Assembly (NCBI GenBank): GCA_903907165.1
Contig: CAIVNC010000005.1
Span: 1 to 43,713, forward strand
DNA from: Candidatus Buchananbacteria bacterium
GTDB taxonomy: Bacteria; Patescibacteriota; Patescibacteriia; 2-01-FULL-39-33
Length of the DNA: 43,713 nt
Direction: 5' to 3'
Part shown: piece after piece, positions 16,195-34,711 of the stretch
Layout of the letters: each line of letters begins with the position of its first letter
Position numbering within the stretch: the stretch's first letter is position 1
Made by a program: the position numbers and the translations under genes
Notes under the pieces: generated by a model
What the model saw: the letters and a program-made list of their open reading frames with translations, nothing else
Databases searched by the model: none
Told to the model about the DNA's origin: nothing

Positions 16195-16242
16195 AAAGAT
16201 GGATCATCTAAAACCACAAAAAACTAAAAGGAGAATCGAATC

Positions 16243-17166
16243 ATGAAACAGAAGATGATGGCCACTTTCGTAGTCCTGGCGATGATGATCATCGCCAATT
16301 CGGTTTTTGCGCAGCAAATCACCAGTGTCACCTACGGCTGGAAACACTCCACCGACGGGACAAATTTCACCACGATCACTGGAGAAACCTCCGAGACCAT
16401 CAGCGCCCCGACCACCACTTCCGGCAATAATTGGTTGCGTCAAGACGTGACCGGCTGGGCCGAAACCAGTACCGGGTCAATGGTCATTGTGGCGACAACG
16501 TCTACAATCATTACCTATACGGTAAATGACGTGGTCGTTTTCACCCAACAGCCCAGCGATACCAGAGTTAACAGCGGCACTCTTGCCACCTTCTCTGTCG
16601 CGGTGACCGGTACCACTCCGATCAGCTACCAGTGGTATGACATGGCCACAACTATTACCGGCGCCACCTCCAGTACCTATAGTTTCATCGCTACTGGCGC
16701 GGACAATGGCACATCGATCAGTTGTATTGCCACCAACATCACCGGTTCAACCAGTTCCAACCCGGCTCATCTGATTGTGGACACCAAGCCAGTATTCAGT
16801 GTCGGCTTGTCTGATCTGGCCACTACAACTGGCTTAACCGTCAACCTCAGCGTGACCGCAAGTAACATCAACAATCTTACCCAGACCTACGTCTGGACTA
16901 AGAATGGAATTGTCGTCGGTGGCAATTCTCTGAATTACAGCTTCATCGCCACGGACGCGGACAACGGCGCGATCATTATCTGCACCGTGACCGATTCCGT
17001 CGGCAGTGTCAGCACTCAGATGACTCTCACGGTTCAAGGTTGGACTCTGCAAAATACCATCACCGACATTCAGGTCGACGGCGTTCCGCAGACAATGCCC
17101 ATCAATGTGACCAAGGGACATTCCCTTATGATTCGTAAGGTCTGGGTCACAGTACCTAAACCGTAA
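16243..17166 (+). CDS. Secreted protein C (N2 module + two Ig I-set-like domains)
   Basis: RBS AAAGGAG upstream. Signal peptide MKQKMMATFVVLAMMIIANSVFA|QQ. The N2 module is shared with gene D. Ig-like repeats carry FTQQPSD..V..G..ATFSV.VTG..PISYQWY and ...YVWTKNG...C.V.D..G. There is no promoter cassette upstream, so it is probably co-transcribed with B. Confidence 0.85.
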   Translation: MKQKMMATFVVLAMMIIANSVFAQQITSVTYGWKHSTDGTNFTTITGETSETISAPTTTSGNNWLRQDVTGWAETSTGSMVIVATTSTIITYTVNDVVVFTQQPSDTRVNSGTLATFSVAVTGTTPISYQWYDMATTITGATSSTYSFIATGADNGTSISCIATNITGSTSSNPAHLIVDTKPVFSVGLSDLATTTGLTVNLSVTASNINNLTQTYVWTKNGIVVGGNSLNYSFIATDADNGAIIICTVTDSVGSVSTQMTLTVQGWTLQNTITDIQVDGVPQTMPINVTKGHSLMIRKVWVTVPKP

Positions 17167-17178
17167 AAGGAGGCAGCT

Positions 17179-17979
17179 ATGAAACTGCTCATTGCCGTTC
17201 TGATGATTGTCATAGCCATCTCGGTCTCTCCGAGCTTGGCTGGCAATCTTCAACAGCAGTACGCTTGGGACATCGAAACCTCAAGCGGTTGGCAGTCAAC
17301 TGGCATCACCTCCGACACTCTGAGAGCCCCCACCGACAAAGTGGGGGCAATCAGAGTCAGGCAAACAGTCATTGCAATGATCGATGGCAATGTCGTGGCT
17401 TCAACCTCAACCATCTTGAATTATCAAGTGCTTGATGTTAATGTCACTCGGCCATTCTTCATCGTCCAACCAGAAAGCCAAGTCAGCGGTCAGAATCAAA
17501 CCGTGATGCTTGTCTCTCTGGCCACCGGAACCCTGCCAATAAGTTACCAATGGCAGAAAAACGGTCTGGACGTAGCCGGAGCCAATCAAAACACTCTGAC
17601 TATTGCAAGCGTCCAAGAAACAGACACCGGAAACTACCGATGTATGGCCAGTAACTCCGGTGGCTCGATCTTGTCGGACTGGGCCAGTCTGACCCTACTT
17701 ATCAACACCACTATCACCGCCCCGACTTTGAACTTTGTCTCGGACTCCCAAGCTATCTGGCTTGGTTCGCCGGCACTGCTTCATTGTCAGGCTAGTGGTG
17801 GCAATCTGCACTTTATTTGGCTCCGAAATGGCATCCCCATTCCCGGAGCTATCGCCCCAGACTACCTGATTCCAAGTGTCGCCCTCCAAAACGGCGCTCA
17901 GTATCAGTGCTTTTTCTGGAATGACGTCGGAACCAACATCTCCGGCATCATTTATCTGACGATTTTGACGCCAAATTAA
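17179..17979 (+). CDS. Secreted protein D (N2 module + Ig I-set-like domain + C-terminal variant Ig module)
   Basis: RBS AAGGAGG 6 nt upstream. Signal peptide MKLLIAVLMIVIAISVSPSLAG|N. Ig repeat motifs: QPESQVSGQNQTVMLVSLATGTLPISYQWQKNG...DTGNYRCMASNSGG. The C-terminal module ASGGNLHFIWLRNGIPIPG...GAQYQCFFWN is paralogous to the C-terminus of gene E. Confidence 0.85.
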   Translation: MKLLIAVLMIVIAISVSPSLAGNLQQQYAWDIETSSGWQSTGITSDTLRAPTDKVGAIRVRQTVIAMIDGNVVASTSTILNYQVLDVNVTRPFFIVQPESQVSGQNQTVMLVSLATGTLPISYQWQKNGLDVAGANQNTLTIASVQETDTGNYRCMASNSGGSILSDWASLTLLINTTITAPTLNFVSDSQAIWLGSPALLHCQASGGNLHFIWLRNGIPIPGAIAPDYLIPSVALQNGAQYQCFFWNDVGTNISGIIYLTILTPN

Positions 17980-18003
17980 ACAAAAAAACGTCAATAATCA
18001 TTC

Positions 18004-18046
18004 GCGACCAACAAACCCCTAAAAAGGTTTCTTGGTCGCTTTTTTT
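18004..18046 (+). terminator. Rho-independent terminator of the B-C-D unit
   Basis: GCGACCAAcAAACC (18004-18017) pairs with GGTTTcTTGGTCGC (18026-18039), followed by T7. The stem ends (GCGACCA...TGGTCGC) resemble the terminator of gene E. Confidence 0.8.
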
Positions 18047-18264
18047 ATCTAAATTTAGATAAAATAACCAATTACTATTGACAAAAATCAAAATGTGTGC
18101 TATTCTTATCAATTAAATCAGAAAAGCCTTTGATTTAAGGAACTTTGAAAATTGAAAGTAATATGGCCCAAAAGCCTTAAAATATAAAGAAAAGATAAGT
18201 TAACCTGGACTCCCCTAGGGAGACCTTACCTTAGCTCAGGGCAAAAGCCCAAAGGAGTAGTATC
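18047..18264 (+). promoter_or_regulatory. Regulatory cassette copy 3
   Basis: Perfect palindrome ATCTAAATTTAGAT (18047-18060). TTGACA (18078-18083), 17 nt ending TGc, TATTCT (18101-18106). GGAACTTTGAAAATTGA (18139-18155). AGATAAGTTAA (18193-18203). Hairpin CTCCC-CTA-GGGAG (18210-18222). AAAGGAG (18251-18257) 7 nt before the ATG at 18265. Confidence 0.6.
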
Positions 18265-20115
18265 ATGAAAAAGTTGATCCTCGCAGTATCAGTTTTCTGT
18301 TTGTTGTTGACATCGGTCTTCGCCGAACCCCTCATTTTCTTTACCGTCCCCCAAGACGGTGTCACATCGTTCAGTTTCAATGCCAACGGCGCCACCATGG
18401 CCAATACTCTGGTTAATCCGCCCGTCGGCAAAAACTGGGCTGACGTACATGAAATGGGAATTCTCTGGATGTTTCCGAATAACGCCCCCTGGGGAGTATT
18501 CGAAACCACTCCTATTTCCTTGACTTACGGAAACGTCTCCAACTTTACAGTCAACATGATTGGAAGCGGAGTCAATTACAATGGGACTTCCGTGTCGTTC
18601 ACAATTTCTCCTTCTCTCGCGGGAAGTCTGAAGTTGAACGCGTACGCTGTCATCGACAATGTCAAGTATTATTTTGACACCACAAAAGTTATTGGCAACT
18701 ATGACGGCGCGCCCATGACCAAGCTCATGGATCTCCAAAACTGGGACTGGGCGACGCAATCACCGATTGCACCACAAATCGTTCAGCAGCCGACGAGCCA
18801 GACCCTCTATCCGGGAGAAATAGCCACCTTTACAGTCGTGGCAACCGGATCTGGCAGCCTGTCTTATGAGTGGGCAAAAAATGGAGAGAAACTGGATGGC
18901 GCAAGTTCATCTTCGCTAAATGTTTTTTACAGCTCCGCCGTTAATGGTGATAAGTATCGTTGTATCGTCACTAATTCTGCCGGAACTATTACATCTAATG
19001 AGGTTGAGCTGACGGTGGTGGCAATACCCGGGAAACCGACGATTACTCAGCAACCAACCACCAATACTGTCGTTCTTGGAAATCAGGCAGTATTCATGGT
19101 TTCAGCAACTGGCAATGGAACTCTGAGTTATCAATGGTTCAAAAACGGTGCCGAAATAATTGGAAGAACAACTTCAACTCTGGTCATTACTAACTCTCAA
19201 CTTAGTGATGCCGGCTTGTACTATTGTTCTATCACCAATAAAACTGGCGCCGGAGTAATGTGGGAAAACTCAATTGAAGTTTCCCTGATCGTCAATGAGG
19301 CTGCAAACGCGCCTCAGATAACAACTCAACCGAGCGACATACTCGCCATCGCCGGAGAGTCCAAAGTAATATTTACCGTTGTGGCCACGGGCAATGGCGT
19401 CCTGACCTACCAATGGGCAAAGGGCGAAAACAATATCGCCGGAGCAACCAGCTCCACCTTGGCTTTTCCCAATGTCCACCTGGATGATGCCGGGCAATAC
19501 AGTTGTGCCGTCACCAACACAGTTGGAACATCGGAACTCTCCGTAATGTCCAATAAGGCAAATCTGACTGTGGTTTCTCCAATCATAATCACACAGCAGC
19601 CGGTAAACCAAACGGTGACCATCGAGCAAGACGCGGTTTTTACCATTGCCGCCACCGGTCCCGGAACACTGAGTTATCAATGGTATTGGGATAGCGTACA
19701 GATCCCTGGCGCTACAAGCTCAACGTTGACAATCAATCACGTTGAGTATAAAGCGGCGCCGAGCACAGTTTACTGCGTCGTTTCAAATCAGTATCAGGGT
19801 GTCGGTTCTAATTCGGCAACTCTGACAACGACACCGCCGGCCGAAACCACCCCAACCATCGAGTTGGTCTCGCCGTCCCGAGCCATCAATCTCGGCGACA
19901 CAATCACCCTGTCGGTGATTGCGAGCGGTGGAAATCTTCAGTACCTGTGGCTCCGTAATGGCATTCCCATTGCCGGAACTGCGAACCCTGACCTCACCAT
20001 CACCAACGCGGTGCTGAGAGACGGAGCACAATATCAATGTTTTGTCTGGAACAGTTCCCACCCGCTGGGAACCATGACCCAGATCATTTATGTAACCGTT
20101 CTGACACCCCAATAA
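18265..20115 (+). CDS. Secreted protein E (N1 module + four Ig I-set-like repeats + C-terminal variant Ig module)
   Basis: Signal peptide MKKLILAVSVFCLLLTSVFA|EP. Residues ~21-165 are paralogous to the gene A N1 module. Four ~85-aa repeats (about residues 170-252, 257-343, 349-436, 439-522) carry QP.sq....G..a.F.V.ATG.G.LsYQW.KNG..i.GATSStL........DAG.Y.C.vtN..G. The C-terminal module (530-616) is paralogous to the C-terminus of D. Confidence 0.9.
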   Translation: MKKLILAVSVFCLLLTSVFAEPLIFFTVPQDGVTSFSFNANGATMANTLVNPPVGKNWADVHEMGILWMFPNNAPWGVFETTPISLTYGNVSNFTVNMIGSGVNYNGTSVSFTISPSLAGSLKLNAYAVIDNVKYYFDTTKVIGNYDGAPMTKLMDLQNWDWATQSPIAPQIVQQPTSQTLYPGEIATFTVVATGSGSLSYEWAKNGEKLDGASSSSLNVFYSSAVNGDKYRCIVTNSAGTITSNEVELTVVAIPGKPTITQQPTTNTVVLGNQAVFMVSATGNGTLSYQWFKNGAEIIGRTTSTLVITNSQLSDAGLYYCSITNKTGAGVMWENSIEVSLIVNEAANAPQITTQPSDILAIAGESKVIFTVVATGNGVLTYQWAKGENNIAGATSSTLAFPNVHLDDAGQYSCAVTNTVGTSELSVMSNKANLTVVSPIIITQQPVNQTVTIEQDAVFTIAATGPGTLSYQWYWDSVQIPGATSSTLTINHVEYKAAPSTVYCVVSNQYQGVGSNSATLTTTPPAETTPTIELVSPSRAINLGDTITLSVIASGGNLQYLWLRNGIPIAGTANPDLTITNAVLRDGAQYQCFVWNSSHPLGTMTQIIYVTVLTPQ

Positions 20116-20134
20116 GCGCAGAACGGCCAACCCT

Positions 20135-20180
20135 GGCGACCACAGGATCTTCTCACGAAGATTCTCTGGTCGCCTTTTTT
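20135..20180 (+). terminator. Rho-independent terminator of gene E
   Basis: GGCGACCAcAGGATCTTC (20135-20152) pairs with GAAGATTCTcTGGTCGCC (20157-20174), followed by T6. Confidence 0.8.
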
Positions 20181-20193
20181 CTTTACCAAAAAA

Positions 20194-20218
20194 CCGGCAA
20201 ATTATGCCGGTCTTTTTT
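20194..20218. terminator. Bidirectional hairpin terminator between gene E and gpmI
   Basis: CCGGCA (20194-20199) pairs with TGCCGG (20205-20210), flanked by an A-run upstream and a T-run downstream. It can serve the convergent gene E and gpmI transcripts. Confidence 0.6.
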
Positions 20219-20233
20219 ATTTCAATTTTATTT

Positions 20234-21820
20234 TTATAACAAGCTTCTACCTGTCATTTCTTCTGGCTGTGGCAAACCCATGACTTTTAAAATCGTCGGC
20301 GCCACATCAGATAAAATTCCAGCCGGTTGAACCAAACTAAGATCAGAACCAATACTATCTGAAACACCGGCATTTTTACCTTCCCATTGCTTACCAATAG
20401 CGATGAACGGCACGGGATAAGTACTGTGTTCTTTGTCCACCTTTCCTGATTGTAAATTTAATAATTCTTCAGCATTACCATGATCCGCGGTAATAAAAAC
20501 TACTCCACCCTTGGCAAGCGTTGTTTCCGTTAGTTGCTTAACGCAATCATCAATCACCTCACAAGCTTTGACTGTAGCTTTTAAATTTCCCGTATGAGCA
20601 ACCATATCACCACCAGCATAATTAACTACCACAAAATCATATTTATCAGCCATTATCGTTTCCAAAATTTTCTTGGTTACTTCCTTGGCTGACATTTCTG
20701 GTTTTTCATCATAAGACTTAACTCTAGGTGACGCCACCAAAATACGATCCTCACCAGTAAACTGCTCTTCACGGCCACCATTAAAAAAGAAAGTGACGTG
20801 AGCGTATTTTTCTGTTTCGGCAGCGTGAAGCTGAGTCAGTCCGGCTTCAGAAATTACCCGAGCCAAAGGATACTGAATATTTTCTGTTGGGTATGCAGTT
20901 TCAACCGGTAAATCTTTTTCATATTCCGTCATTCCCACAAAATATAAATCTTTCAAATACTCTCTAGGAAATTTATCAAAACCAGGAAGTACCATGGCTT
21001 TGGTAATTTCTCTAGCGCGATCAGAACGGAAGTTGAAAAAAATCATGGAGTCGCCATCACTGACCTTTCCAACCGGTTGACCATTTTCAGTTATCACGGT
21101 CGGGACAACTTCCTCGTCGTAAATTTTTTGATCATAAGAAGCCTTGACTGCTTCGGCCGGATTATCAAAAGTTTTCTCGGCTTCGCCCTTTACAATGGCA
21201 TTGTATGACAAAGCAATACGTTCCCAGTGATTATCACGATCCATACCGTAAAATCTTCCAGCCAATGAAGCGATTTTTATTTCAGGAACTTTTTCTAATT
21301 TTTGTTGTAATTTTTCGACCAAATCAATGCCAGAATTAAATGGCATATCGCGGCCATCGAGGAAACCATGAATAAAAACTTTTTTTAGTTTTTGCTTTTG
21401 ACAAAATTCCACCAAAGCGTAAAGATGTTCCATCGATGAATGAACGCTGCCAGAAGAAAATAAACCCATGATATGCAAAGCTGATTTATTTTTCTTAGCG
21501 TGATCAGCGGCAGCTAGAAATTTTTCATTGGTAAAAAATGATCCGTCAGAAATGCACTTATTAATCTTTGGCAAATTCTGATAAATTAATTTTCCGGAGC
21601 CAAGATTTAAGTGACCAACTTCACTGTTGCCAATTTCACCCCAGGACAAACCAACCGCTTCACCAGAAGCTTGCAGAGTCATGGCAGGATAAGTTTTAAT
21701 CAGATTACTAATAAACGGCGTCTTAGCTAAAGACACGGCGTTACTGCGACTAGGTGGAGCAATACCCCAACCATCAGCAATAATCAGAACTACCGGTTTT
21801 GGTCTTGGATTTTCAGACAT
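20234..21820 (-). CDS. gpmI: 2,3-bisphosphoglycerate-independent phosphoglycerate mutase (copy 1)
   Basis: 528 aa. iPGM motifs: ADGWG, catalytic-Ser motif GNSEVGHLNLG, YAHVTFFFNGG, GGDMVAHTG, ITADHGN. Confidence 0.9.
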   Translation of the reverse strand: MSENPRPKPVVLIIADGWGIAPPSRSNAVSLAKTPFISNLIKTYPAMTLQASGEAVGLSWGEIGNSEVGHLNLGSGKLIYQNLPKINKCISDGSFFTNEKFLAAADHAKKNKSALHIMGLFSSGSVHSSMEHLYALVEFCQKQKLKKVFIHGFLDGRDMPFNSGIDLVEKLQQKLEKVPEIKIASLAGRFYGMDRDNHWERIALSYNAIVKGEAEKTFDNPAEAVKASYDQKIYDEEVVPTVITENGQPVGKVSDGDSMIFFNFRSDRAREITKAMVLPGFDKFPREYLKDLYFVGMTEYEKDLPVETAYPTENIQYPLARVISEAGLTQLHAAETEKYAHVTFFFNGGREEQFTGEDRILVASPRVKSYDEKPEMSAKEVTKKILETIMADKYDFVVVNYAGGDMVAHTGNLKATVKACEVIDDCVKQLTETTLAKGGVVFITADHGNAEELLNLQSGKVDKEHSTYPVPFIAIGKQWEGKNAGVSDSIGSDLSLVQPAGILSDVAPTILKVMGLPQPEEMTGRSLL

Positions 21821-21846: not shown

Positions 21847-23403
21847 TTATTTAATCAGACTTTTCCCTGTCATTAGTTTGCTTTTTTTGATGCCAAACAA
21901 TTCTAGAATTGTCGGGGCAATATCCGCTAATTTTCCACCGCTTTTCCTTAAAACCTGATGACCAGCGAACTCTTTGCCTATCAACATGAACGGCACTAAA
22001 TTATCAGTATGCTCAGTAATAACCTCACCCGTTTTAGGATTTAGCATGTAGTCTATATTACCATGATCGGCGGTAATTATCAAGATCCCCTTTTTCTTCA
22101 AAACATCTTTAGTAATTTTTTTAACATAACTATCGAGAATCTTAATTGTCTTCATGGCTGCTTGCATATTGCCCGTGTGGCCGATCATATCCGGACAGGC
22201 AACATTAACACAAATGAAATCAAACTTAGACAATGATGATTTTATCTTGGCATAAATTTTGGCTGTGGACATAGCTGGAGTTTTGGCATAATTATCAACA
22301 TGGGGCGAAGAAACCAAAATTCTTTTTTCACCATCAACGCAATCAGAGTAACCACCGTTAAAAAAGAAGGTCACGTGAGCATACTTTTCAGATTCTGCAA
22401 TGTAAACTTGGCGCCGACCAGAAAGTAAAAACGGCAAGGTCTCCTTGATGTCTTCAGACGGATAAGCGCTAAGAATACTATCAAGGTCAGGACCAAAATC
22501 AGTCATGGCAACATATACAATATTCTGCAAAACTTCTCGTCGCCTCTTGGCACCGGGATTTTTCTTTTCGAATTGAGACTGAACGAAAGGCTTAGTCAGT
22601 TGCCTGGCACGATCAGATCGTAAATTAAAAAATATAATAGCGTCGTTGTCGCTTATTCTCTCAATCATCTTGCCATTTTCATAGAGAACAATCGGTTCAA
22701 TAAATTCATCGGTGATATTGGCATTGTACGCGCGAGTAATTCCGGCTTGAGGACTGTCAGATTTGTGACCCGTGCCTATTGTCATGGCATCGTAAGCCTG
22801 CAAAGTTCGTCCCCAATCTTTTTTTCTGTCCATAGCATAAAAACGACCAATGACGGTGGCAATTTTTTCATTAGGCAATAAAAATCTTTCTAGAGCCTCA
22901 ATAGATTTGAGCGCCGAACGCGGAGCACTGTCGCGACCATCAGTAAAAAGATGGAGAAAAACTTTTTTGAATTTTTTATCACGAAAAAAAGTCAGCAGTG
23001 CCAATAAATGATCAGGGTCACTATGAGGACTCTGACCATCGGATAACATGCCCATCAAATGAACACTTGATTTATTTTTCTTAGCATGATTTAAGGCAGA
23101 AACAAAAGCTGAATTTTTAAAAAACTCTCCAGTATTAATTTGCTTGGAAATTTTAACCACATCCTGATCCACAACTCGGCCAGCACCAATATTAAGATGT
23201 CCAGCTTCCGAGTTTCCCGGCTGATCTGGCGGCAAGCCAACACATTTACCAGAAGCGCAAAGCTTAGTCCAAGGATAATGATGTTTAAGTGAATCAATAA
23301 AGGGCGTTTTAACGAGATGCATCGGATTGCCTGCATCTTCCTTGCCTATCCCCCAGCCATCGAGAATCAGTAAAACAACTTTTTTATTTTCAGTTTTTGC
23401 CAT
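21847..23403 (-). CDS. gpmI: 2,3-bisphosphoglycerate-independent phosphoglycerate mutase (copy 2, divergent paralog)
   Basis: 518 aa with the same motif set (LDGWG, GNSEAGHLNIG, YAHVTFFFNGG, CPDMIGHTG, ITADHGN). By eye it is only moderately similar to copy 1. Confidence 0.9.
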   Translation of the reverse strand: MAKTENKKVVLLILDGWGIGKEDAGNPMHLVKTPFIDSLKHHYPWTKLCASGKCVGLPPDQPGNSEAGHLNIGAGRVVDQDVVKISKQINTGEFFKNSAFVSALNHAKKNKSSVHLMGMLSDGQSPHSDPDHLLALLTFFRDKKFKKVFLHLFTDGRDSAPRSALKSIEALERFLLPNEKIATVIGRFYAMDRKKDWGRTLQAYDAMTIGTGHKSDSPQAGITRAYNANITDEFIEPIVLYENGKMIERISDNDAIIFFNLRSDRARQLTKPFVQSQFEKKNPGAKRRREVLQNIVYVAMTDFGPDLDSILSAYPSEDIKETLPFLLSGRRQVYIAESEKYAHVTFFFNGGYSDCVDGEKRILVSSPHVDNYAKTPAMSTAKIYAKIKSSLSKFDFICVNVACPDMIGHTGNMQAAMKTIKILDSYVKKITKDVLKKKGILIITADHGNIDYMLNPKTGEVITEHTDNLVPFMLIGKEFAGHQVLRKSGGKLADIAPTILELFGIKKSKLMTGKSLIK

Positions 23404-26815: not shown

Positions 26816-27070
26816 TTATTCAGCATCAACTTCTTTCAGAATCCAATCGCCGCCGGAAATTTTTAATATTTTAACTTCCAATCCTTCAGCAATCCCCCCC
26901 TCAGCTAACAACTTCAAATTAAAAGCTAAATTAGCCGGCAAAATTTCTTCGCCGTGCTCAACAATAGATCCAAGTTCAATCGTCACTGATTTTACTTTTT
27001 GCCAACTATTCTTCTGGGCGTAATCCATGATCGCTCGATAAATCATGTCCGCCAAATGGAAATCATGCAT
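26816..27070 (-). CDS. HypA-like nickel-insertion protein lacking the zinc-ribbon domain
   Basis: 84 aa. N-terminal MHD (compare the HypA MHE Ni-binding motif) and a HypA-like N-domain pattern (A..I.....A......V..V.IE.G........L.F...L...G.IAEG....I). There is not a single Cys, so the CxxC...CxxC Zn site is absent. It lies next to hydrogenase genes. Confidence 0.6.
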   Translation of the reverse strand: MHDFHLADMIYRAIMDYAQKNSWQKVKSVTIELGSIVEHGEEILPANLAFNLKLLAEGGIAEGLEVKILKISGGDWILKEVDAE

Positions 27071-27133: not shown

Positions 27134-27484
27134 TTATTTTAGACTATTTCTGAAGGCCGTAATTCTCCTTATTAAAATTTCCAATCTATTATATAAATCT
27201 TCAAATTCCTTTTCTTCAATATAATTTCTGTTTTTGGCAATATATAATTCTGAAACAACTTCGGCAGCAGACCTAATGGAATAATTTAGGAATGCTTTAA
27301 ACTCTTTTACTGACTCGCTGGCAGAGCCTTCTGCAATATTTGCCGAAATAGAAACAGCTGCTCTTTTTATTTGACTGCCCAGTCCAAATAATTCCACCTG
27401 TGGAAATTTGTTAGTAGTGTCATAAACTAGATTTGCTGATTTTATTGATTCCTGCCAAATTTCTAAATTTTCAAATCTAAACAT
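27134..27484 (-). CDS. Four-helix-bundle protein (23S rRNA intervening-sequence protein / Avd-like family)
   Basis: 116 aa. Family-typical sequence (F.FE.L.IWQ.S......VY..T..FP..E.FGL.SQI.RAAVSI.ANIAEG........EF..FL..S..S..E..........Y). No obvious SD. The start codon abuts an inverted repeat. Confidence 0.8.
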   Translation of the reverse strand: MFRFENLEIWQESIKSANLVYDTTNKFPQVELFGLGSQIKRAAVSISANIAEGSASESVKEFKAFLNYSIRSAAEVVSELYIAKNRNYIEEKEFEDLYNRLEILIRRITAFRNSLK

Positions 27485-27616: not shown

Positions 27617-28933
27617 CTAGTGTGTAGCGCAAGAGATACAGGGATCATAAGCGCGAATAAGAGACCTGATTTTTATTGATCTTTTCTTTGGATCCATCTT
27701 CATCAACCCAGGCAAGTACTCCATAATATCCGCTTCCAGATTTTTCAAGAAAGAAACGGTTGGGGTAATGATTGTGCAAGATTTTATAAAACCATTCTTA
27801 TCTATAACATATTCATGATAAAGCGTGCCACGAGGAGCTTCCGTCGCATCAGCGCCCTTGGTTTCTTTGCCAAGAGGATTGGCTCCGCCAATAATTCGGT
27901 TTTTACTTTCCCAACTTTCTTCCGGCTTCAGGGTCTTAGCCGTCTCTTCGAGCAACTGACAAATTTCTTCGAGACAATGGACGAGCTCAATAGACTGAGC
28001 GGGAATATTTAAGAAAGAATTGTACTGCGGTAACTTCCAATGCAAACCGCGTAGTAGTCCCTTGGCTAATTTATTCAACTTGTCAGAATTATTATTGATA
28101 CGAGCGAGAGCTCCAACCATAAACGGCTCGCCATCAAGCTCGGCCGACTTGGCAGCACGGAATGGCTCCTCGACTTCTTTGATATTTTTGGTAAAATCCT
28201 TGGCTGAAATAATCCGATATTCCGGTTTAGCCTTTTTCTTTAAAATCGGTTCTAAGATTTTCAAATCTCCAGAGTAAAATGGATATTCCTTGTCGCTGGT
28301 CATGGAGATAAAAGTTGTCGGCCGGCTGAATTTAGGATATTTTATTTTCATGACCAAATTTGCCAAACCAAGAGCCTGCTTCAATAAAACTTCTCGCTGT
28401 TTGGCTAGATCCTTTAACTCTTCTTCCTTTGGTAAAACTTTAAAACCGCCAATCTCGCAAGCGATAGGATGAATGGCGCGACCACCAATGACTTCAATTA
28501 CCTTGAGCGCCCACTCGCGAAGCTTGATAGCGCTCTCCGCTTCCTTGGGCTGGCGAGAAATAAAATCAAAATCATTTTCTAGATTATAAAAATCGGGCAA
28601 GGACAAGAAAAATAAATGCAAAGCATGACTATGGATCATCTGAGCCAAAAGCATAATTCTCCTGAGTTTTATTGTCTGCTCACTAGGCTTTATTTTGAAA
28701 GCGTTTTCAATAGCCTTGATCGAAGAAATTTTGTGAACCACGGGACAAATACCACAGATGCGAGAAGTAATAACAGGCGCTTCACTGAAATGTCTACCAA
28801 CCAAAATACCCTCAATCAAGCGAGAACCTTCGGTCGTCATTAACTTGGCCGATGTAACATCGCCTTTCAAAATCTCCGCCACAAAATCCGCATGGCCTTC
28901 CATTTTTCCTATATGATTGATTTGTATTTTCAT
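27617..28933 (-). CDS. [NiFe]-hydrogenase large (alpha) subunit, cytoplasmic sulfhydrogenase/group-3b-like
   Basis: 438 aa. N-terminal Ni-Fe ligand motif RICGICPVVH and C-terminal DPCISCATH. The ORF stops directly after the His. Grouping is inferred from the partner subunits (delta, beta, gamma). Confidence 0.9.
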   Translation of the reverse strand: MKIQINHIGKMEGHADFVAEILKGDVTSAKLMTTEGSRLIEGILVGRHFSEAPVITSRICGICPVVHKISSIKAIENAFKIKPSEQTIKLRRIMLLAQMIHSHALHLFFLSLPDFYNLENDFDFISRQPKEAESAIKLREWALKVIEVIGGRAIHPIACEIGGFKVLPKEEELKDLAKQREVLLKQALGLANLVMKIKYPKFSRPTTFISMTSDKEYPFYSGDLKILEPILKKKAKPEYRIISAKDFTKNIKEVEEPFRAAKSAELDGEPFMVGALARINNNSDKLNKLAKGLLRGLHWKLPQYNSFLNIPAQSIELVHCLEEICQLLEETAKTLKPEESWESKNRIIGGANPLGKETKGADATEAPRGTLYHEYVIDKNGFIKSCTIITPTVSFLKNLEADIMEYLPGLMKMDPKKRSIKIRSLIRAYDPCISCATH

Positions 28934-28943
28934 AATTTATTTT

Positions 28944-29273
28944 TTACGCAGCATTATCGTGAACGTGATCCAACTCAATAATATTAGCTCTTTTACTTTT
29001 TTCTTCCTGAAGTAAATTAAAAATGAAACCAACAGCTTTTTCTTCAAACTCATCACCAATCATCATCTCTTCTATCTCCTTGGCATTTCCATTTATAATT
29101 TTTCTAAGGGTATCTGAATTTTCCTTAATCCAAACATGAAATTTTTCTGGGTCTTTCGCATCATCACCCAAATCTTTTAACATTGCCTTGCTCTCTACCA
29201 GCGCAATTGCTTTCACCTCCTCAGGCTTAAATCTCTCTCCGGTCTCCTTAAGTACCTCAGTTGATAGATTCAT
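28944..29273 (-). CDS. Hypothetical acidic protein between the hydrogenase small and large subunit genes
   Basis: 109-aa ORF, tightly packed (4 nt after the delta stop, 10 nt before the alpha start), rich in E/D/K and predicted helical. No family recognised. Confidence 0.55.
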   Translation of the reverse strand: MNLSTEVLKETGERFKPEEVKAIALVESKAMLKDLGDDAKDPEKFHVWIKENSDTLRKIINGNAKEIEEMMIGDEFEEKAVGFIFNLLQEEKSKRANIIELDHVHDNAA

Positions 29274-29277
29274 ATAT

Positions 29278-30078
29278 TTATTTCTTATTTTTCTTTTCCT
29301 CTATTTCTAATTCTTTCATAATTGAATCTCTAGCGCCAAAAACTTCCATCACCCGATAAATCTGATCCTTGGTAAACTTCTTAGTCAAATGTTTCATTAA
29401 ATTTTGGACTTGACCACCTTGCAATAATCCGCGACAACCCCAACAGGCCTGCTTGCTCTTAAGGCAAACTGCGTTGCAACCAGCCAAAGTAATCGGTCCG
29501 AGACAGATCTCCCCTTTTTGCAATAAACATTCATAACCGCGCTTTTGACATTCCAAGCAAACTGGCGTCTGAGGAATTTTTGGCGTTCTGCCTTTTAATA
29601 ATTGATTCGCAATTTCCATAAACTCATCGCCGTCAATTGGACAACCAGGGATCGTCAAATCAACTTTAACAAAATTATCAACTTCTTTAATATCAGGATT
29701 AGCGACTTTCATTTTTTTGTAAACCTCCTTGATCGTCTTTTGCTTATTGCCATAATTCTTGAGTTCCCAAACTCCGCCGAGCGCTGCGCAATTACCAATA
29801 ACAACTAGAGTTTTGCATCTGGCTCTCATGTCCATCAATAACTTGATATTTTCGGCCGTGACAGGATTGCCTTCCACAAAACAAAAATCATACTGCTCTT
29901 TTTCTTTCATGGGCAAATCTTCAACAAGCCTAAATTCTCCAACATCGCATTTGGCTAACCAGTCCAAAAACCTTTTGCCCTTATCGAGCATGGCGAACTG
30001 ACAGCCCTCACAAGAAGTGAGGCCGATAATAGCAATCTTGGGTTTACGGCGACTGGCGCCTATTTTTTTAACTACCAT
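29278..30078 (-). CDS. [NiFe]-hydrogenase small (delta) subunit, NuoB-like with C-terminal Fe-S extension
   Basis: 266 aa. Proximal-cluster motifs (GLTSCEGCQ, GNCAALGG, IPGCP) plus a C-terminal Cys-rich region (CLECQKRGYECLLQKGEICLGPITLAGCNAVCLKSKQACWGCRG). No Tat signal, so it is cytoplasmic. Confidence 0.9.
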   Translation of the reverse strand: MVVKKIGASRRKPKIAIIGLTSCEGCQFAMLDKGKRFLDWLAKCDVGEFRLVEDLPMKEKEQYDFCFVEGNPVTAENIKLLMDMRARCKTLVVIGNCAALGGVWELKNYGNKQKTIKEVYKKMKVANPDIKEVDNFVKVDLTIPGCPIDGDEFMEIANQLLKGRTPKIPQTPVCLECQKRGYECLLQKGEICLGPITLAGCNAVCLKSKQACWGCRGLLQGGQVQNLMKHLTKKFTKDQIYRVMEVFGARDSIMKELEIEEKKNKK

Positions 30079-30220
30079 ATCCTATATTTTAACAAATTTT
30101 TAACTAATGGCCAAATTATTACTAAATTAATTGACCAAAACAAAAAAATCGGCTAAAATGAGGGTGTTCACAGACGTGAGCGGTCGTTCATTCTATTTAA
30201 ACTCCAAGGAGGTAGGCATC

Positions 30221-30928
30221 ATGATTAAATATGTGCCCAATATTCTCACTATTGTCAGAATCATTTTTGCCTTCTTTGTCTTTTTCCTCCTCCTGGCTAT
30301 GTGCTACTACAAGCAACTGGGAATTCAGGAAAATTCGCTGGCGAGCATTCATCTGCTCATTATTTTCCTGGTCTCCACGGCTTCAATCAGCGACGCAGTC
30401 GATGGCAATATCGCCAGAAAGTATAACTGCATCTCCAAATTTGGACAAATCTGGGATCCTCGAGCCGACAAAGCTCTGACCTTTGCCTATTTCCCGCTGA
30501 TTCTCTTGGGCATGGTCAACTTCATTCCGGTGGCTTTGCTTTTTGTTAGAGACTCTCATGTCACCTGGCTTCGAAGCCAAATCAACCGGCCATTTCCCGC
30601 AAGATTATCTGGCAAGTGGAAGACGATCATCAGCTTTCCGCTGATGTGCGTCCTCATCGCCATCATTCCGGTCGAAGGTAATATTTTTCTCTGGTTATTC
30701 AGATTTATTGGCCTGGATTTCATTGCCAAATTTTTCCTGAACTTCCAAAAAGAAATTTCTCTCTTCGGCGGAGCGCTACTTGGCGGATTCTGCGTCTGGT
30801 CTTGGGTGGATTATTACCTCGCCCTCAAGAAAGCCATTCGCGAAGAGACTGGCAAAGTCAAAACCAAAAAGTTAATTCCCGAAGGACTGCGCTTCCGATC
30901 AAAAGTTCAATCAAGCCAGACCTTCTAG
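30221..30928 (+). CDS. CDP-alcohol phosphatidyltransferase family protein (PgsA-like)
   Basis: Motif DAVDGNIARKYNCISKFGQIWDPRADK matches D-x2-D-G-x2-A-R...G-x3-D-x3-D. Multi-TM. AAGGAGG lies 8 nt before the ATG at 30221; the track ORF begins earlier at a TTG. Confidence 0.8.
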   Translation: MIKYVPNILTIVRIIFAFFVFFLLLAMCYYKQLGIQENSLASIHLLIIFLVSTASISDAVDGNIARKYNCISKFGQIWDPRADKALTFAYFPLILLGMVNFIPVALLFVRDSHVTWLRSQINRPFPARLSGKWKTIISFPLMCVLIAIIPVEGNIFLWLFRFIGLDFIAKFFLNFQKEISLFGGALLGGFCVWSWVDYYLALKKAIREETGKVKTKKLIPEGLRFRSKVQSSQTF

Positions 30929-30950: not shown

Positions 30951-30985
30951 AAAAAACAAAGCGACCCCACAAAGGCCGCTTTTTT
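30951..30985. terminator. Bidirectional hairpin between the convergent pgsA-like and hypC::hydE-like genes
   Basis: An A-rich run (30951-30960), GCGACC (30961-30966) pairing with GGCCGC (30974-30979) with one mismatch, then T5. This is a weak stem. Confidence 0.45.
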
Positions 30986-30988
30986 AAT

Positions 30989-32251
30989 TTATATTTCAAT
31001 ATTCAATTCCTTTTCCATCATCTGATAACTCAACTCGCCCTTAAACAGCGCCCATTTTTCATATTTTTCACCAGCGTCAAAGAATTTGTTTTCATAAATA
31101 TAATAATCATCTCGATATTTGGCGGGAGTGAGATTAAACATTACCGAATTAGCGCCAGCCATAAAGGCTGATTGCCGGCCATCAGTTGAGCGCATGGTTT
31201 CCATAGCTGTTGTGACAGAAATCCGGCTCTTGGGCATAACTAGCCTTGAAATAGCAATCATTTTTAAAACCATAGAAAAATCAACTTTTGACTCGCCTGC
31301 CAGTGGCGTGTTTTTTGACGGAATAAGCGGACCGAATGATGGCATAAAAGTATCGAGCTCCTTCATTAACAAAACATCATTAGCCAAATCACTAGCCGTT
31401 TGGCCAGGTAAACCGATAATCGAGCCAGTTGCCAGAACGTAGCCCATTTCTTTCAACTTCTTTAAAATATTAATTCGTTCGCTTAAAATATGACCTGGCC
31501 GCATTTCAGCATATAATTTTTCATTGGAACTTTCAAAGCGATACAAAACTCCACCGGCTCCAGCCTGACGAAATTTTTCATATTCCGCAAACGACCTGTC
31601 ACCAATACTTAAGTAAATAAAAACTCGACATTTGCTTTTAATGTCTTTAATTATCTGACAAATTTTTTCTTCGTCAAACCACAAGTCTTCACCGGATTGT
31701 AAAACTAATATCTTGTATCCCCGATCAACCGCCTGGACGGCTGTAGCCACAATTTCCTCAGGCGACATACGATATCTTTTTACCTCATGATTATCGGCGC
31801 GAAGTCCGCAATAAGCGCAGTTATTCCGGCAATAATTAGAAAATTCAATGATACCATGAATGCAAATATGATCTTTTATATTTGATTTGCGAGTAATGTT
31901 AGCTTCCGAATAAAGCGCTTGAAGCAACGCTGAATCTTCTAACTGAAATAAATATTCTAAATCAGATTTAGTCAGAGTTTGTCGTGAAGCCGATTCCAAA
32001 ACTTTTTTAAACTTATCTTCAAGGTTGTCGTAATCTGGTTTTGGGTAAGAAGCGAGCAAATCAAAAATCTCCCGAGCATCTTGCTCATCTATTTTTTTAA
32101 CCAAGAATTCATTGGTATACAAAACCCAATCGCCAGCTTCAATATCATTTACTGGACCCAAGCTTATTTCCAAGTCTTTTGTGCCAGAAGAAATTATAGC
32201 TTTGCCATTTTTACCAACAGATACAACTTTAGCGGGTAACGTTAAACACAT
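30989..32251 (-). CDS. Fusion protein: HypC/HupF-family N-terminal domain + HydE-like radical SAM domain
   Basis: Residues 1-~70 (MCLTLPAKVVSV......A.....G......L..V.....GDWVL.....LV..ID..DA.EIFDLL) match HypC, including the essential Cys2. Residues ~90-420 match HydE-type radical SAM maturases (IIEFSNYCRNNCAYCGLRADN..VKRYRMSPEEIV, LQSGED, GSIIGLPGQT, FGPLIPSKNTPLA, TTAMET). The CX3CX2C motif is at C141/C145/C148. Confidence 0.85.
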   Translation of the reverse strand: MCLTLPAKVVSVGKNGKAIISSGTKDLEISLGPVNDIEAGDWVLYTNEFLVKKIDEQDAREIFDLLASYPKPDYDNLEDKFKKVLESASRQTLTKSDLEYLFQLEDSALLQALYSEANITRKSNIKDHICIHGIIEFSNYCRNNCAYCGLRADNHEVKRYRMSPEEIVATAVQAVDRGYKILVLQSGEDLWFDEEKICQIIKDIKSKCRVFIYLSIGDRSFAEYEKFRQAGAGGVLYRFESSNEKLYAEMRPGHILSERINILKKLKEMGYVLATGSIIGLPGQTASDLANDVLLMKELDTFMPSFGPLIPSKNTPLAGESKVDFSMVLKMIAISRLVMPKSRISVTTAMETMRSTDGRQSAFMAGANSVMFNLTPAKYRDDYYIYENKFFDAGEKYEKWALFKGELSYQMMEKELNIEI

Positions 32252-32475: not shown

Positions 32476-33300
32476 TTAAATAACCTCAGGAATATCCTTG
32501 ATCTGATCCCAAGAAAATACCGGACCGTCCTTGCAGACATAATATGGCCCGATAGCGCAATGCTGACAAACACCAGCACCGCAATACATCTTGCGCTCCA
32601 AAGACAAGTAAATATTTTCGTCTTTAATTTTCTTTTTCTTCAATTCTTCAATTACAAATTTATACATCTTCGGCGGACCAACGAGCACGGCCACGGAATT
32701 TGGCGTAATTTTCTTATTTTCTTTAATCAAATTCGTCACCAAACCCTTAGCGCCTTTCCAGCTTGCCGATGGTTTTTCTAGAGCAATGTCAAAATCAGCA
32801 TGACGATTCCAGACAGCATGTTCGTCTTTAAACAATAAAGTCTTTTCATTGAGACAACCATAGAAAAGCTGTAAAATTGTATTTTCTAGTCTACCTGCTA
32901 GATAATCAATAATCAAGGGTCGAAGTGGAATGAAACCACAACCGCCACCAATTAAAATTAATGGCTTGTCTTTAAATTTATCAACATCAAAGCCATTACC
33001 AAATGGTCCGCGAAGCTGAACGAGATCTCCGGCTTTCAATTTGTGCAAATGTTCCGTCAAAACGCCAACATTACGAATAGCCAGTTCCAAATATTCTTTA
33101 GAATTTTTGGGCGATGAACAAATACTAATCGGACATTCACCCCAACCAGCCAAACCGATTTGCATAAACTGACCGGGCAAGAAAGCAAACTGATTTTGCA
33201 ACTTACGATCAACAAAATAAAACCGAAAAATCATCGTGTCATCAGACACCATTTTAGCTGACAGGATTTTCGCTTCTTGAGTTTGATAAAGATTATTCAT
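32476..33300 (-). CDS. Hydrogenase gamma subunit (FAD/NAD(P)-binding, 2Fe-2S; PyrK/FNR-like)
   Basis: FNR-like fold with a nucleotide-binding GGGCGFIPL motif and a C-terminal 2Fe-2S motif CGAGVCQHC...C. The ATG at 33300 (MNNLYQ...) was chosen; the track ORF runs to 33372, overlapping the upstream gene. Confidence 0.85.
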   Translation of the reverse strand: MNNLYQTQEAKILSAKMVSDDTMIFRFYFVDRKLQNQFAFLPGQFMQIGLAGWGECPISICSSPKNSKEYLELAIRNVGVLTEHLHKLKAGDLVQLRGPFGNGFDVDKFKDKPLILIGGGCGFIPLRPLIIDYLAGRLENTILQLFYGCLNEKTLLFKDEHAVWNRHADFDIALEKPSASWKGAKGLVTNLIKENKKITPNSVAVLVGPPKMYKFVIEELKKKKIKDENIYLSLERKMYCGAGVCQHCAIGPYYVCKDGPVFSWDQIKDIPEVI

Positions 33301-33307
33301 AGTTTTT

Positions 33308-33691
33308 TTACTTACAATCCTCAGCACAATTACATTTATTTTCTCCGGTACTAGCATTACAAATATGATCACCGCAATTCGAACAAACTAAACCTGATCC
33401 CATTTTTGAAACACAACCATTTTTGTCGCCAATCGGATCTGGTCCAGGTTCTTGATATGACAGTCCAGCGTTTATCTCTTTTAAACCAGCACAACATGTT
33501 CCAAAATTACCTTTTGGTCCCATTGATGCATTTTTTGAAATCTTACCCGCCACAATACAACCAGGAACAGAGGAATTATTTCCGACCTGAGCAGAATCAG
33601 CCGCAAATCTCTGTCTAACATAAACAAATCCGTAAATACCGAGAATTAAAATTAAGATAATTACCACAAACCAAAGTAAATTTTTGTTCAT
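33308..33691 (-). CDS. Membrane-anchored Cys-rich hypothetical protein
   Basis: 127 aa. N-terminal TM/signal anchor (LLWFVVIILILILGIYGFVYV) followed by a region with 10 Cys ending CSNCGDHICNASTGENKCNCAEDCK. It lies 3 nt after the beta stop and 7 nt before the gamma start. Confidence 0.6.
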   Translation of the reverse strand: MNKNLLWFVVIILILILGIYGFVYVRQRFAADSAQVGNNSSVPGCIVAGKISKNASMGPKGNFGTCCAGLKEINAGLSYQEPGPDPIGDKNGCVSKMGSGLVCSNCGDHICNASTGENKCNCAEDCK

Positions 33692-33694
33692 AAA

Positions 33695-34711
33695 TTATGT
33701 TTTTAATTTTATCGGTTTTACTATAACCTTCTTTTCCTTGGTCTTACCCACTTCCGCCAAAACATCATTTAGCTTAATGCCAACCGGACAAACTCTCGTA
33801 CAACGACCACAACCAACGCAACCTGGCAAATTATATTCAAAAGGAATGCGGATAAATTTGTGAGCGTACCAAAAATAAATTTTCTGTTTAACTTTGTCGA
33901 GTTCTTTGTGTCCGCCGGCGACTAGCGAAAAGTCGTTATAAAAACAAGTGGTGGCGTTACGACAACGACTGCAATCTTTGGGGTCGGATTTATCTACCAC
34001 GTCAAAACAAAAACAGGTCGGACAATTAATCGCGCACTTACCGCAAGCAATACAAATCTTATCTAAATCTTTCCAGATTTTAGTACCATAAGATTTTTCC
34101 ATTTTGTCCATCAGGCTTAGCATTCTCTTGTCGGTGCCCTTTTCTGGTACTGGTCCAGCAAATTCAATATTTTCATAATCCTTAGCGCCGGATTTATCCA
34201 AAGTTTCTTGACCACGACGTGAACCGGAATAAAGCTTGACTTGGCCGTTTTTTAATTTAACAATAAAAATATCAAAAGCCAAATGTTCCAAAACATTCTC
34301 TTCAAGATTATGACTGAGCACTTTGTACTTTTTGTAGTCGCTTTCCAGTCCGCCAGAATAGCCAATGAGAAGTGAGTTGGATCGACGCTTTTGATAATAA
34401 GGATCCTTGCCAAAAACCTGATCGATCAAGGTTATAGCCTTCAAATCTAAAACATTAACACCCCAAAGAGCGTTTTTTTGGATCTCCGGCAAAGTTTCGA
34501 TAGACTTCTGACTGTCAAAAACAAAAAGCCGTTCTTCCGACGGAATTAAAAACTTTTTCCAGGTTTCCAAGGGAATCTCGCCAGACCAATCGATCTCAGC
34601 AAAATTCTCAACGGCTGAAATGGCTAAATTATCACCTTCCAACTGCGGCGCAAAAATCTGCCACTGTCTGCCCAGAAATTTAAATATTTTTTCTAGTTCT
34701 TTTTGATTCAT
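33695..34711 (-). CDS. Hydrogenase beta subunit (4Fe-4S dicluster; AsrA/HydB-like)
   Basis: 338 aa with two ferredoxin-type motifs (CIACGKCAINCPTCFC and CVGCGRCTRVCPV). The architecture is that of sulfhydrogenase beta / anaerobic sulfite reductase subunit A. Confidence 0.85.
   Translation of the reverse strand: MNQKELEKIFKFLGRQWQIFAPQLEGDNLAISAVENFAEIDWSGEIPLETWKKFLIPSEERLFVFDSQKSIETLPEIQKNALWGVNVLDLKAITLIDQVFGKDPYYQKRRSNSLLIGYSGGLESDYKKYKVLSHNLEENVLEHLAFDIFIVKLKNGQVKLYSGSRRGQETLDKSGAKDYENIEFAGPVPEKGTDKRMLSLMDKMEKSYGTKIWKDLDKICIACGKCAINCPTCFCFDVVDKSDPKDCSRCRNATTCFYNDFSLVAGGHKELDKVKQKIYFWYAHKFIRIPFEYNLPGCVGCGRCTRVCPVGIKLNDVLAEVGKTKEKKVIVKPIKLKT

Follow-up and report, generated by a model that had tools for sequence, protein, structure and literature searches.

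HypC, HypD, HypE and HypF are, to our knowledge, considered to be required universally for the maturation of [NiFe] hydrogenases; in the canonical pathway carbamoyl phosphate is the source of cyanide, via HypF and HypE, and HypC-HypD is where the centre is put together, and the anaerobic origin of the CO ligand is a long-standing open question. In canonical HydE, a radical S-adenosylmethionine (SAM) maturase of the [FeFe] hydrogenases, two Fe units are proposed to be paired on residues M224 and M291 (numbering of the Thermotoga maritima enzyme, TmHydE) for HydF (PMC10114646, PMC11826987). A precedent for a HydE/BioB-like radical SAM enzyme that acts for a non-[FeFe] hydrogenase is given by the HmdB/HcgA-type proteins of the [Fe]-hydrogenase cofactor. 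Here we describe a gene that encodes HypC and a HydE-type enzyme as one protein (hypC::hydE, 30989..32251, minus strand), in a stretch of 43,713 nucleotides (contig CAIVNC010000005.1, positions 1 to 43,713, of assembly GCA_903907165.1) from a Candidatus Buchananbacteria bacterium, the whole of which is called the window below. From its homologies and gene context we consider it rather probable that the fusion protein is a bifunctional maturase of the surrounding [NiFe] cluster, in which a relay from HydG to HydE to HypC would deliver the Fe-CO/CN unit and replace HypD, HypE and HypF.

A HydE-HypC fusion, termed unusual, has been mentioned in a single sentence for Ca. Centrionella anaeramoebae, where it is encoded in a [NiFe] operon with HybD, HypA and HypB in a reduced symbiont genome (bioRxiv 10.64898/2026.04.11.717937); the main text of that preprint names no HypD, HypE or HypF, and neither linkage to HydG nor a clade signature, distribution or mechanism is analysed in it. 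A detailed study of group-3b hydrogenases from the Candidate Phyla Radiation (CPR) does not discuss maturation, and a full-text literature search (subscription-only literature lying outside it) found no study of the HypC-HydE architecture. The statement in a first-pass annotation of the window that no characterised HypC::HydE fusion was known thus holds, the passing mention in this one 2026 preprint being the only one. In databases the fusion proteins are labelled either "[FeFe] hydrogenase H-cluster radical SAM maturase HydE" or "biotin synthase".

The gene is a single open reading frame (ORF) with an ATG start, encoding 420 amino acids (aa) and a stop codon, and it is followed directly after the stop codon by a terminator-like hairpin (30958..30982, minus strand; an 11-bp stem and then a T-run). 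Residues 1-66 (32054..32251, minus strand, as for all features of the gene given here) form a HypC/HupF domain, which matched Pfam PF01455 with 47.9 bits against a gathering score of 28.5; aa 1-70 were matched by Thermococcus kodakarensis HypC (HypC structures 2z1c/3vyr in the PDB). Residues 81-398 (31058..32011) form a HydE-type radical SAM (beta-alpha)8 domain, with Pfam matches to Radical_SAM (PF04055, aa 135-292, 72.7 bits) and BATS (aa 309-372, 35.5 bits), and this scored 275.6 bits over aa 89-398 on the NCBIfam HydE equivalog TIGR03956 (rSAM_HydE), a small margin over the cut-off of 254.6; the homologues P0074 and P0080 reached 276 bits on the same model. The first-pass reading of one 420-aa ORF with a HypC/HupF N-terminus running into a complete HydE-type radical SAM domain was therefore borne out, as both parts lie above curated thresholds, and all of the motifs that it listed (MCLTLPAKVV, GDWVL, IIEFSNYCRNNCAYCGLRADNHEVKRYRMSPEEIV, LQSGED, IIGLPGQT, GPLIPSKNTPLA and TTAMET) were found.

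A search of solved structures by sequence returned TmHydE with 266 bits over aa 81-390, compared to 107 for PylB and 62 for BioB, and the competing NCBIfam models PylB (146.6 bits), BioB (112 bits) and HmdB (73.1 bits, against a cut-off of 321) all scored far under their own cut-offs. An AlphaFold2 model of the fusion, built with 96 homologues, was confident throughout (mean predicted local distance difference test, pLDDT, 92.3; predicted template-modelling score, pTM, 0.91; linker pLDDT 80-90), and the top Foldseek matches to it were all TmHydE entries (E 1.5e-33, TM-target 0.86-0.92). TmHydE was thus the best structural match both by sequence and by fold, in keeping with the resemblance to Thermotoga HydE noted in the first-pass annotation, and the radical SAM half groups with HydE; an identity as BioB, PylB or HmdB was ruled out by the same hidden Markov model, PDB and fold scores. 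The match to HmdB is only a weak one, and the fusion differs from the HmdB/HcgA-type proteins in cofactor and gene context as well.

Compared with TmHydE, the fusion shares the fold, about 40-45% identity over 310 residues, the CX3CX2C cluster motif (C141/C145/C148, 31808..31831) and the residues of the pocket for SAM and complex B. Unlike TmHydE, it carries the N-terminal HypC domain, and the auxiliary-cluster cysteines of TmHydE are absent from the fusions, their region being replaced by a conserved, Cys-free helical tail (aa 399-420, 30992..31057; conserved positions E398, L402, S408 and M411; model helices at aa 396-401 and 406-416). The HypC half resembles HypC, HybG and HupF proteins (PF01455) in its Met-Cys2 N-terminus, in its small beta-barrel and helix (model strands within aa 2-54, model helix at aa 56-65) and in its location in a [NiFe] cluster with HypA. 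It differs from them in being fused to a radical SAM enzyme, in falling under the cut-off of the TIGR00074 subfamily (36.6 vs 48 bits) and in its variability, across the 96 homologues, at the residue corresponding to E. coli His51, C2 being invariant in all 96. By homology and predicted fold the protein is both HydE-like and HypC-like, but lacks the canonical HydE product site, as described below.

A joining of two genes by an assembly or frameshift error had been raised as a way in which the fusion could prove spurious, and the architecture was therefore surveyed widely. A search of 5.8 billion proteins gave 1477 hits at E<=1e-10; among the best 120, 119 (44-100% identity) combined PF01455 with PF04055 in a single chain of some 420 aa, and the lone exception (P0040, 395 aa) was an N-terminally short call. 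The assemblies behind these 120 hits were those of NCBI, JGI, ENA and Logan. Among species-representative genomes a scan gave 103 relatives, from which 80 loci were fetched, and a library clustered at 50% identity held roughly 13-20 representatives with the full HypC-HydE architecture. The hosts include many lineages of Patescibacteria, the anammox Brocadiaceae (Kuenenia, Wunengus) and other Planctomycetota, Methylomirabilis, Syntrophales, Deltaproteobacteria and Thermodesulfobacteriota; the "Gammaproteobacteria" and "Saccharibacteria" labels of some third-party annotation records among the relatives are obviously unreliable. The same architecture, with its length and linker conserved, thus occurs in more than 120 independent clusters (at 90% identity) from several assemblers and sources and in 80 or more species-level genomes, the GC content and base composition are even across the HypC-HydE junction and the AlphaFold2 model is confident through the linker. 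The fusion gene is real and an artefact is scarcely conceivable.

Two apparent departures from this architecture were rejected. Matches of 1.8 kb to the fusion, which looked like insertions or inteins, were really tblastn alignments running on into the radical SAM core of an adjacent HydG. Likewise, "split" HypC and HydE genes in six loci were not accepted, as L070 shows an extra stand-alone HypC before a fusion with a masked N-terminus. Such a stand-alone HypC paralogue of 76-77 aa lies directly upstream of the fusion in L070 (9671-9904, plus strand) and five other loci, and that of L070 has a His-rich tail (SGHTHAHSHT). A lineage-specific insertion of about 50 aa within the HydE barrel was seen in P0103 and P0114 (alignment A1, columns 270-326).

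The gene neighbourhoods of 86 loci (1.34 Mb, with flanks of about 10 kb around each fusion) were tallied by tblastn, using as queries E. coli HypA to HypF and HycI (L086) and the cluster proteins of the window and of L001, L002 and L004. HydG was encoded immediately downstream of the fusion in 56 of the 86 loci, and both the large and the small [NiFe] subunit within 10 kb in 53; gamma and beta subunits were present in 36 and 34 loci respectively, HypA of either type in 32 and HypB in 12, and a protease-like gene with a HycI-type match in 3. HydG, HypC::HydE and HypA (with or without HypB), together with [NiFe] subunits, therefore make up a conserved module that is found across phyla. Co-occurrence with [NiFe] hydrogenases, which the first-pass annotation had proposed to survey for group-3 enzymes, was thereby found, mostly with the group-3b type. 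Unsupervised clustering of the ORFs in the 86 loci gave no further conserved partner, its only extras being the stand-alone HypC (six loci) and a small protease-like gene (five loci).

HypD, HypE and HypF were found in none of the 86 neighbourhoods, HypD being the canonical partner of HypC, and neither the GPGCPVC motif of HypD nor the HypF double zinc finger was present in them, although these motifs do hit the E. coli proteins. Searches of the same 1.34 Mb for H-cluster motifs and HydF signatures gave nothing real, so that the fusion, unlike HydE, is linked to [NiFe] and not to [FeFe] genes and has no HydF nearby. In L004 and L005 the genes form an operon, hypA-hypB-[hypC::hydE]-hydG, with overlapping gene ends, whose order mirrors the hypA-hypB-hypC-hypD-hypE of E. 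coli with HydE and HydG occupying the places of HypD and HypE. Thus the module is like the HypCDEF pathway in its operon place after hypA-hypB, in its presumed end product and in having the apo large subunit as acceptor, and unlike it in that tyrosine-cleaving HydG and HydE are seen near the fusion in the place of HypD, HypE and HypF. The large subunit ended at DPCxxCxxH without a C-terminal extension in 37 of 46 complete linked copies, that of the window included, suggesting that an endopeptidase maturation step is unnecessary; the few with an extension of 7-32 aa include those of loci with the protease-like gene (for example L026, L034 and L039).

In three loci of Planctomycetota/Brocadiaceae (L002, at 15750-18190 and 18326-21296, L043 and L054) the module was linked to a different [NiFe] enzyme, with a small subunit containing NiFe_hyd_SSU_C and a 484-aa large subunit without extension. 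The enzyme of L002 adjoins a histidine kinase and response regulators and could be a sensor of H2.

The partner radical SAM protein is, judged by homology, a true HydG. The linked proteins scored 534-564 bits on the HydG equivalog TIGR03955 (cut-off 312), are about 60% identical to the crystallised HydG of Thermoanaerobacter italicus and, in all 56 cases, keep both the CX3CX2C motif and the HydG-specific C-terminal CX2CX22C. An assignment as ThiH was rejected, as the score of 287 bits is under the cut-off of 380 and the HydG model and CX2CX22C fit instead. A partnership with HydG is a further likeness to TmHydE, and in some cases it extends to covalent linkage: L060 (10001-12646, plus strand; P0121) has one uninterrupted, in-frame ORF of 881 aa for HypC-HydE-HydG, P0124 is a 906-aa representative of the triple fusions with a second subtype of HypC (MCYAIPG...), and in these triple fusions the conserved C-terminal tail of HydE runs on into HydG. 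Close relatives of the CPR-type HydG (P0346, P0385) are annotated in metagenome-assembled genomes of Candidatus Micrarchaeota (DPANN archaea), and a transfer between ultra-small bacteria and archaea may have occurred, of HydG at least if not of the whole module.

The active-site residues of the window protein were mapped through its alignment to TmHydE, for which residue roles have been assigned (PMC10114646, PMC11826987); the coincidence of TmHydE C63/C67/C70 with window C141/C145/C148 confirmed the register. The pocket and relay residues V105, L157, R159, E161, T268/T269 and K309 of TmHydE are conserved as V183, L236, R238, E240, T347/T348 and K389 of the window, and so are the two relay methionines M224 and M291 (M303 and M371); all 86 loci keep these residues, apart from slight variation among T, V and S at position 268. 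In the S3 site of TmHydE, R54, T134 and R155 contact the CN ligands of the di-iron product (PMC10114646, PMC11826987), and here the fusion departs from its relative, with H132, Y213 and G234 replacing these three residues and a new invariant Cys, C130, replacing H52. C130-x-H132 (31856..31864) is thus a clade-specific motif at the position of TmHydE H52-x-R54.

This pattern was compared, in an alignment of representative-search hits and selected fusions, between 19 fusions defined by regular expression (strict MC..P N-terminus) and 115 HydEs of canonical length. The fusions had Cys (19/19), His (19/19), Phe or Tyr (17/19) and Gly (18/19) at the four positions, compared to R54 in 102, T134 in 97 and R155 in 98 of the 115 canonical-length proteins. 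C2, C130, H132, the cluster cysteines, M303 and M371 were invariant in 96 of 96 homologues (alignment A2) and intact in 86 of 86 loci. A neighbour-joining tree built on the HydE core placed 34 signature-bearing sequences within one clade of 35 tips. From these alignments the fusion HydEs are a distinct clade, essentially monophyletic and almost always bearing an N-terminal HypC; it takes in two HypC subtypes (MCLTIP...GDWVL, the kind of the window, and MCYAIPG...GDYVYAQGG) along with the triple fusions, and a few of its members stand alone. Other HydEs were seen to have N-terminal extensions of about 100-130 aa unrelated to HypC, in a "DRTN" group (P0152, P0168, P0180, P0202) and an "HRTR" group (P0144, P0160, P0187), both of which have a canonical-type product site with R54 and T134 kept and N or R at 155; these are further uncharacterised HydE fusion architectures.

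The altered product site bears on whether these proteins could be ordinary [FeFe] maturases that act on a HydA from elsewhere, their [NiFe] neighbours and their HypC partner being incidental. That the fusion passes the HydE equivalog threshold and is annotated by NCBI as an H-cluster maturase, that the linked HydG is very near to canonical HydG and that some CPR and DPANN lineages do encode [FeFe] hydrogenases (PMC11216029) would all fit with this. However, the HydE score is barely over the cut-off, the fusion clade has specifically lost the residues by which the di-iron product is held for HydF, and HypC, the fusion partner, is a [NiFe]-specific chaperone; furthermore, the linkage to [NiFe] subunits and HypA/HypB is repeated in unrelated phyla, and no H-cluster motif or HydF signature accompanied any of the 86 fusions. 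We therefore regard service to an [FeFe] enzyme as very improbable.

A role in [NiFe] maturation could take the following form. HydG would cleave tyrosine and build an Fe(CO)2(CN)-cysteinate synthon on its auxiliary cluster, which the HydE domain would hold in a TmHydE-like pocket while a 5'-deoxyadenosyl radical cuts off the cysteine backbone. The product would stay mononuclear at the exit site (C130/H132, Y/F213, G234) and pass to Cys2 of HypC, which would carry the Fe-CO/CN unit into the apo large subunit; the HypA-like protein would then provide Ni, and no endopeptidase step would follow as the large subunit is without a C-terminal extension. In this way the module would stand in for HypD, HypE and HypF. 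The first-pass suggestion of a hybrid or alternative route to the NiFe(CN)2CO site is supported by the HydG neighbours, the hypA-hypB operons, the lack of HypD, HypE and HypF nearby and the altered product site. Whether this amounts to a complete HypD/E/F-independent route, with CO and CN- derived from tyrosine by HydG, HydE stripping the cysteine carrier and HypC inserting mononuclear iron, seems to us about evenly balanced.

Several points weigh against the proposed route. The HydG product has two CO and one CN (PMC10114646) compared to the one CO and two CN of the [NiFe] site, a mismatch for which ligand exchange must be postulated; as HydG frees a second cyanide per cycle (PMC10114646), such an exchange is conceivable, if speculative. 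In addition, the absence of HypD, HypE and HypF covers about 10 kb around each fusion and not whole genomes, the window itself is without HydG, and, among the best 120 HydG homologues, none lay on the large contigs of the loci that lack HydG beside the fusion.

As an alternative, HypC, HypD, HypE and HypF might be encoded elsewhere and HydG and the fusion might have a supplementary role, giving part of the centre (CO, or pre-carbonylated Fe) or serving one isoenzyme. The hosts with larger genomes (Kuenenia, Syntrophales, Deltaproteobacteria) often have several hydrogenases, and the extra stand-alone HypC just upstream of the fusion in six loci, like the CO/CN ratio of the HydG product (PMC10114646), would agree with a supplementary role. 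We nevertheless consider it unlikely, as HypD, HypE and HypF are missing from all 86 neighbourhoods, including those in which the fusion shares its operon with hypA and hypB, the hosts are mostly Patescibacteria with very small genomes, and the maturation set given for the reduced Legionellales symbiont consists of HybD, HypA, HypB and the fusion only (bioRxiv 10.64898/2026.04.11.717937).

A HydG adjacent to the fusion is lacking from the window and some 12 near relatives (L001, L007, L009, L013, L016-L021, L023), while sister genomes at 57-71% identity (L006, L008, L010-L012, L014, L015) have it directly downstream. This distribution could mean that in the HydG-less sub-lineage the radical SAM half acts on another substrate or is a relic, with only the HypC half serving the hydrogenase, and the failure to find HydG on the large contigs of these loci would be in keeping with that. 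However, the HydG-less loci have kept all catalytic and clade-signature residues despite identities of 51-64% within the sub-lineage of the window, which argues for continued selection on the same chemistry, and since the sisters keep HydG directly downstream its relocation is no less likely than its loss; a changed substrate or a relic is thus improbable. HydG is probably encoded elsewhere in the genomes of these lineages. For the maturation route proposed above, HydG would in the sub-lineage of the window act from elsewhere in the genome, or the synthon would come from another source.

The hydrogenase of the window is, by homology of its subunits, a group-3b-like [NiFe] enzyme with an alpha/beta/gamma/delta set, all on the minus strand. 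The beta-like subunit (33695..34711) matched Pfam Fer4_22 and the gamma-like subunit (32476..33372) Pfam FAD/NAD-binding and DHODB Fe-S domains; the true start of the latter is probably Met25 (nt 33300), and its N-terminus agrees with that of the L001 orthologue. The small (delta) subunit (29278..30078; PF01058) and the large (alpha) subunit of 438 aa (27617..28933; PF00374) had the sulfhydrogenase families ShyD/HydD and ShyA/HydA respectively as their best NCBIfam hits, which fall below the equivalog cut-offs. The large subunit has RICGICPVVH (L1) and a terminal DPCISCATH (L2), so that all four Cys ligands of Ni-Fe are present, and ends at the His of the latter motif.

A HypA-like gene of 84 aa (26816..27070, minus strand) was recognised by a tblastn match of 111 bits to the HypA-like protein of L001, which itself matches PF01155 at 30.1 bits. 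The window protein has the Ni-binding MHD N-terminus and none of the Zn-finger cysteines of canonical HypA, and the truncated type of 85 aa forms an ORF cluster of 16 loci and is conserved, in many CPR loci, at a place downstream of the large subunit. E. coli HypB, HypD, HypE and HypF as tblastn queries found no match in the window, nor were HydG, HydF, HydA or H-cluster motifs found in it by tblastn and motif search. The first-pass inventory of the window, a [NiFe] set without an [FeFe] catalytic subunit and without hypB, hypD, hypE or hypF, was accordingly correct in these respects and had overlooked the HypA-like gene.

The cluster is broken up by unrelated small genes. These are a 109-aa orphan found in no other locus (28944-29273, minus strand) between the small and large subunits, a 23S-rRNA-intervening-sequence protein (IVP; 27134-27484, minus strand), a CDP-alcohol phosphatidyltransferase on the opposite, plus strand (30131-30928) which is common to a few relatives, and a small Cys-rich ORF; this last, of 127 aa (33308-33691, minus strand) between the beta and gamma genes, has an N-terminal hydrophobic segment, many Cys and no Pfam match, and overlaps only an implausible upstream extension of the gamma ORF. 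IVP and GIY-YIG genes are scattered through the homologous clusters of other CPR genomes. Synteny and the nearest relatives of the window put it among the Patescibacteria, as Buchananbacteria-like. Outside the hydrogenase cluster it has genes for the cell wall, for glycosyltransferases, for glycolysis and for Ig-domain proteins. Among these, three consecutive genes at 16243-20115 (plus strand) encode eukaryote-type Ig domains (Ig_3, I-set), the third with five repeats, and an episymbiotic CPR bacterium may use their products as surface adhesins. Cofactor-independent phosphoglycerate mutase is encoded by two paralogues in tandem at 20234-21820 and 21847-23403 (minus strand), a duplication also present in the syntenic L001.

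If the maturation route via HydG, HydE and HypC is correct, radical SAM organometallic chemistry of the [FeFe] type would have been recruited to [NiFe] enzymes, forming an evolutionary bridge between the two maturation machineries. The compact conserved gene set of HydG, HypC::HydE and HypA, with or without HypB, is a testable alternative to the known pathway and would offer a minimal maturation kit for hydrogenase engineering, and its C-x-H exit site is a natural experiment on what controls the release of a one-iron or a two-iron product by HydE. The annotation of these proteins as [FeFe] maturases or "biotin synthase", which can mislead metabolic reconstructions into inferring [FeFe] capacity, would need correcting. 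For the organisms themselves, the route would be the main or sole one in Patescibacteria and would operate also in anammox bacteria and other anaerobes, would account for the source of the CO ligand under anoxia in these organisms and would explain how active hydrogenases arise from the ultra-small genomes of the CPR.

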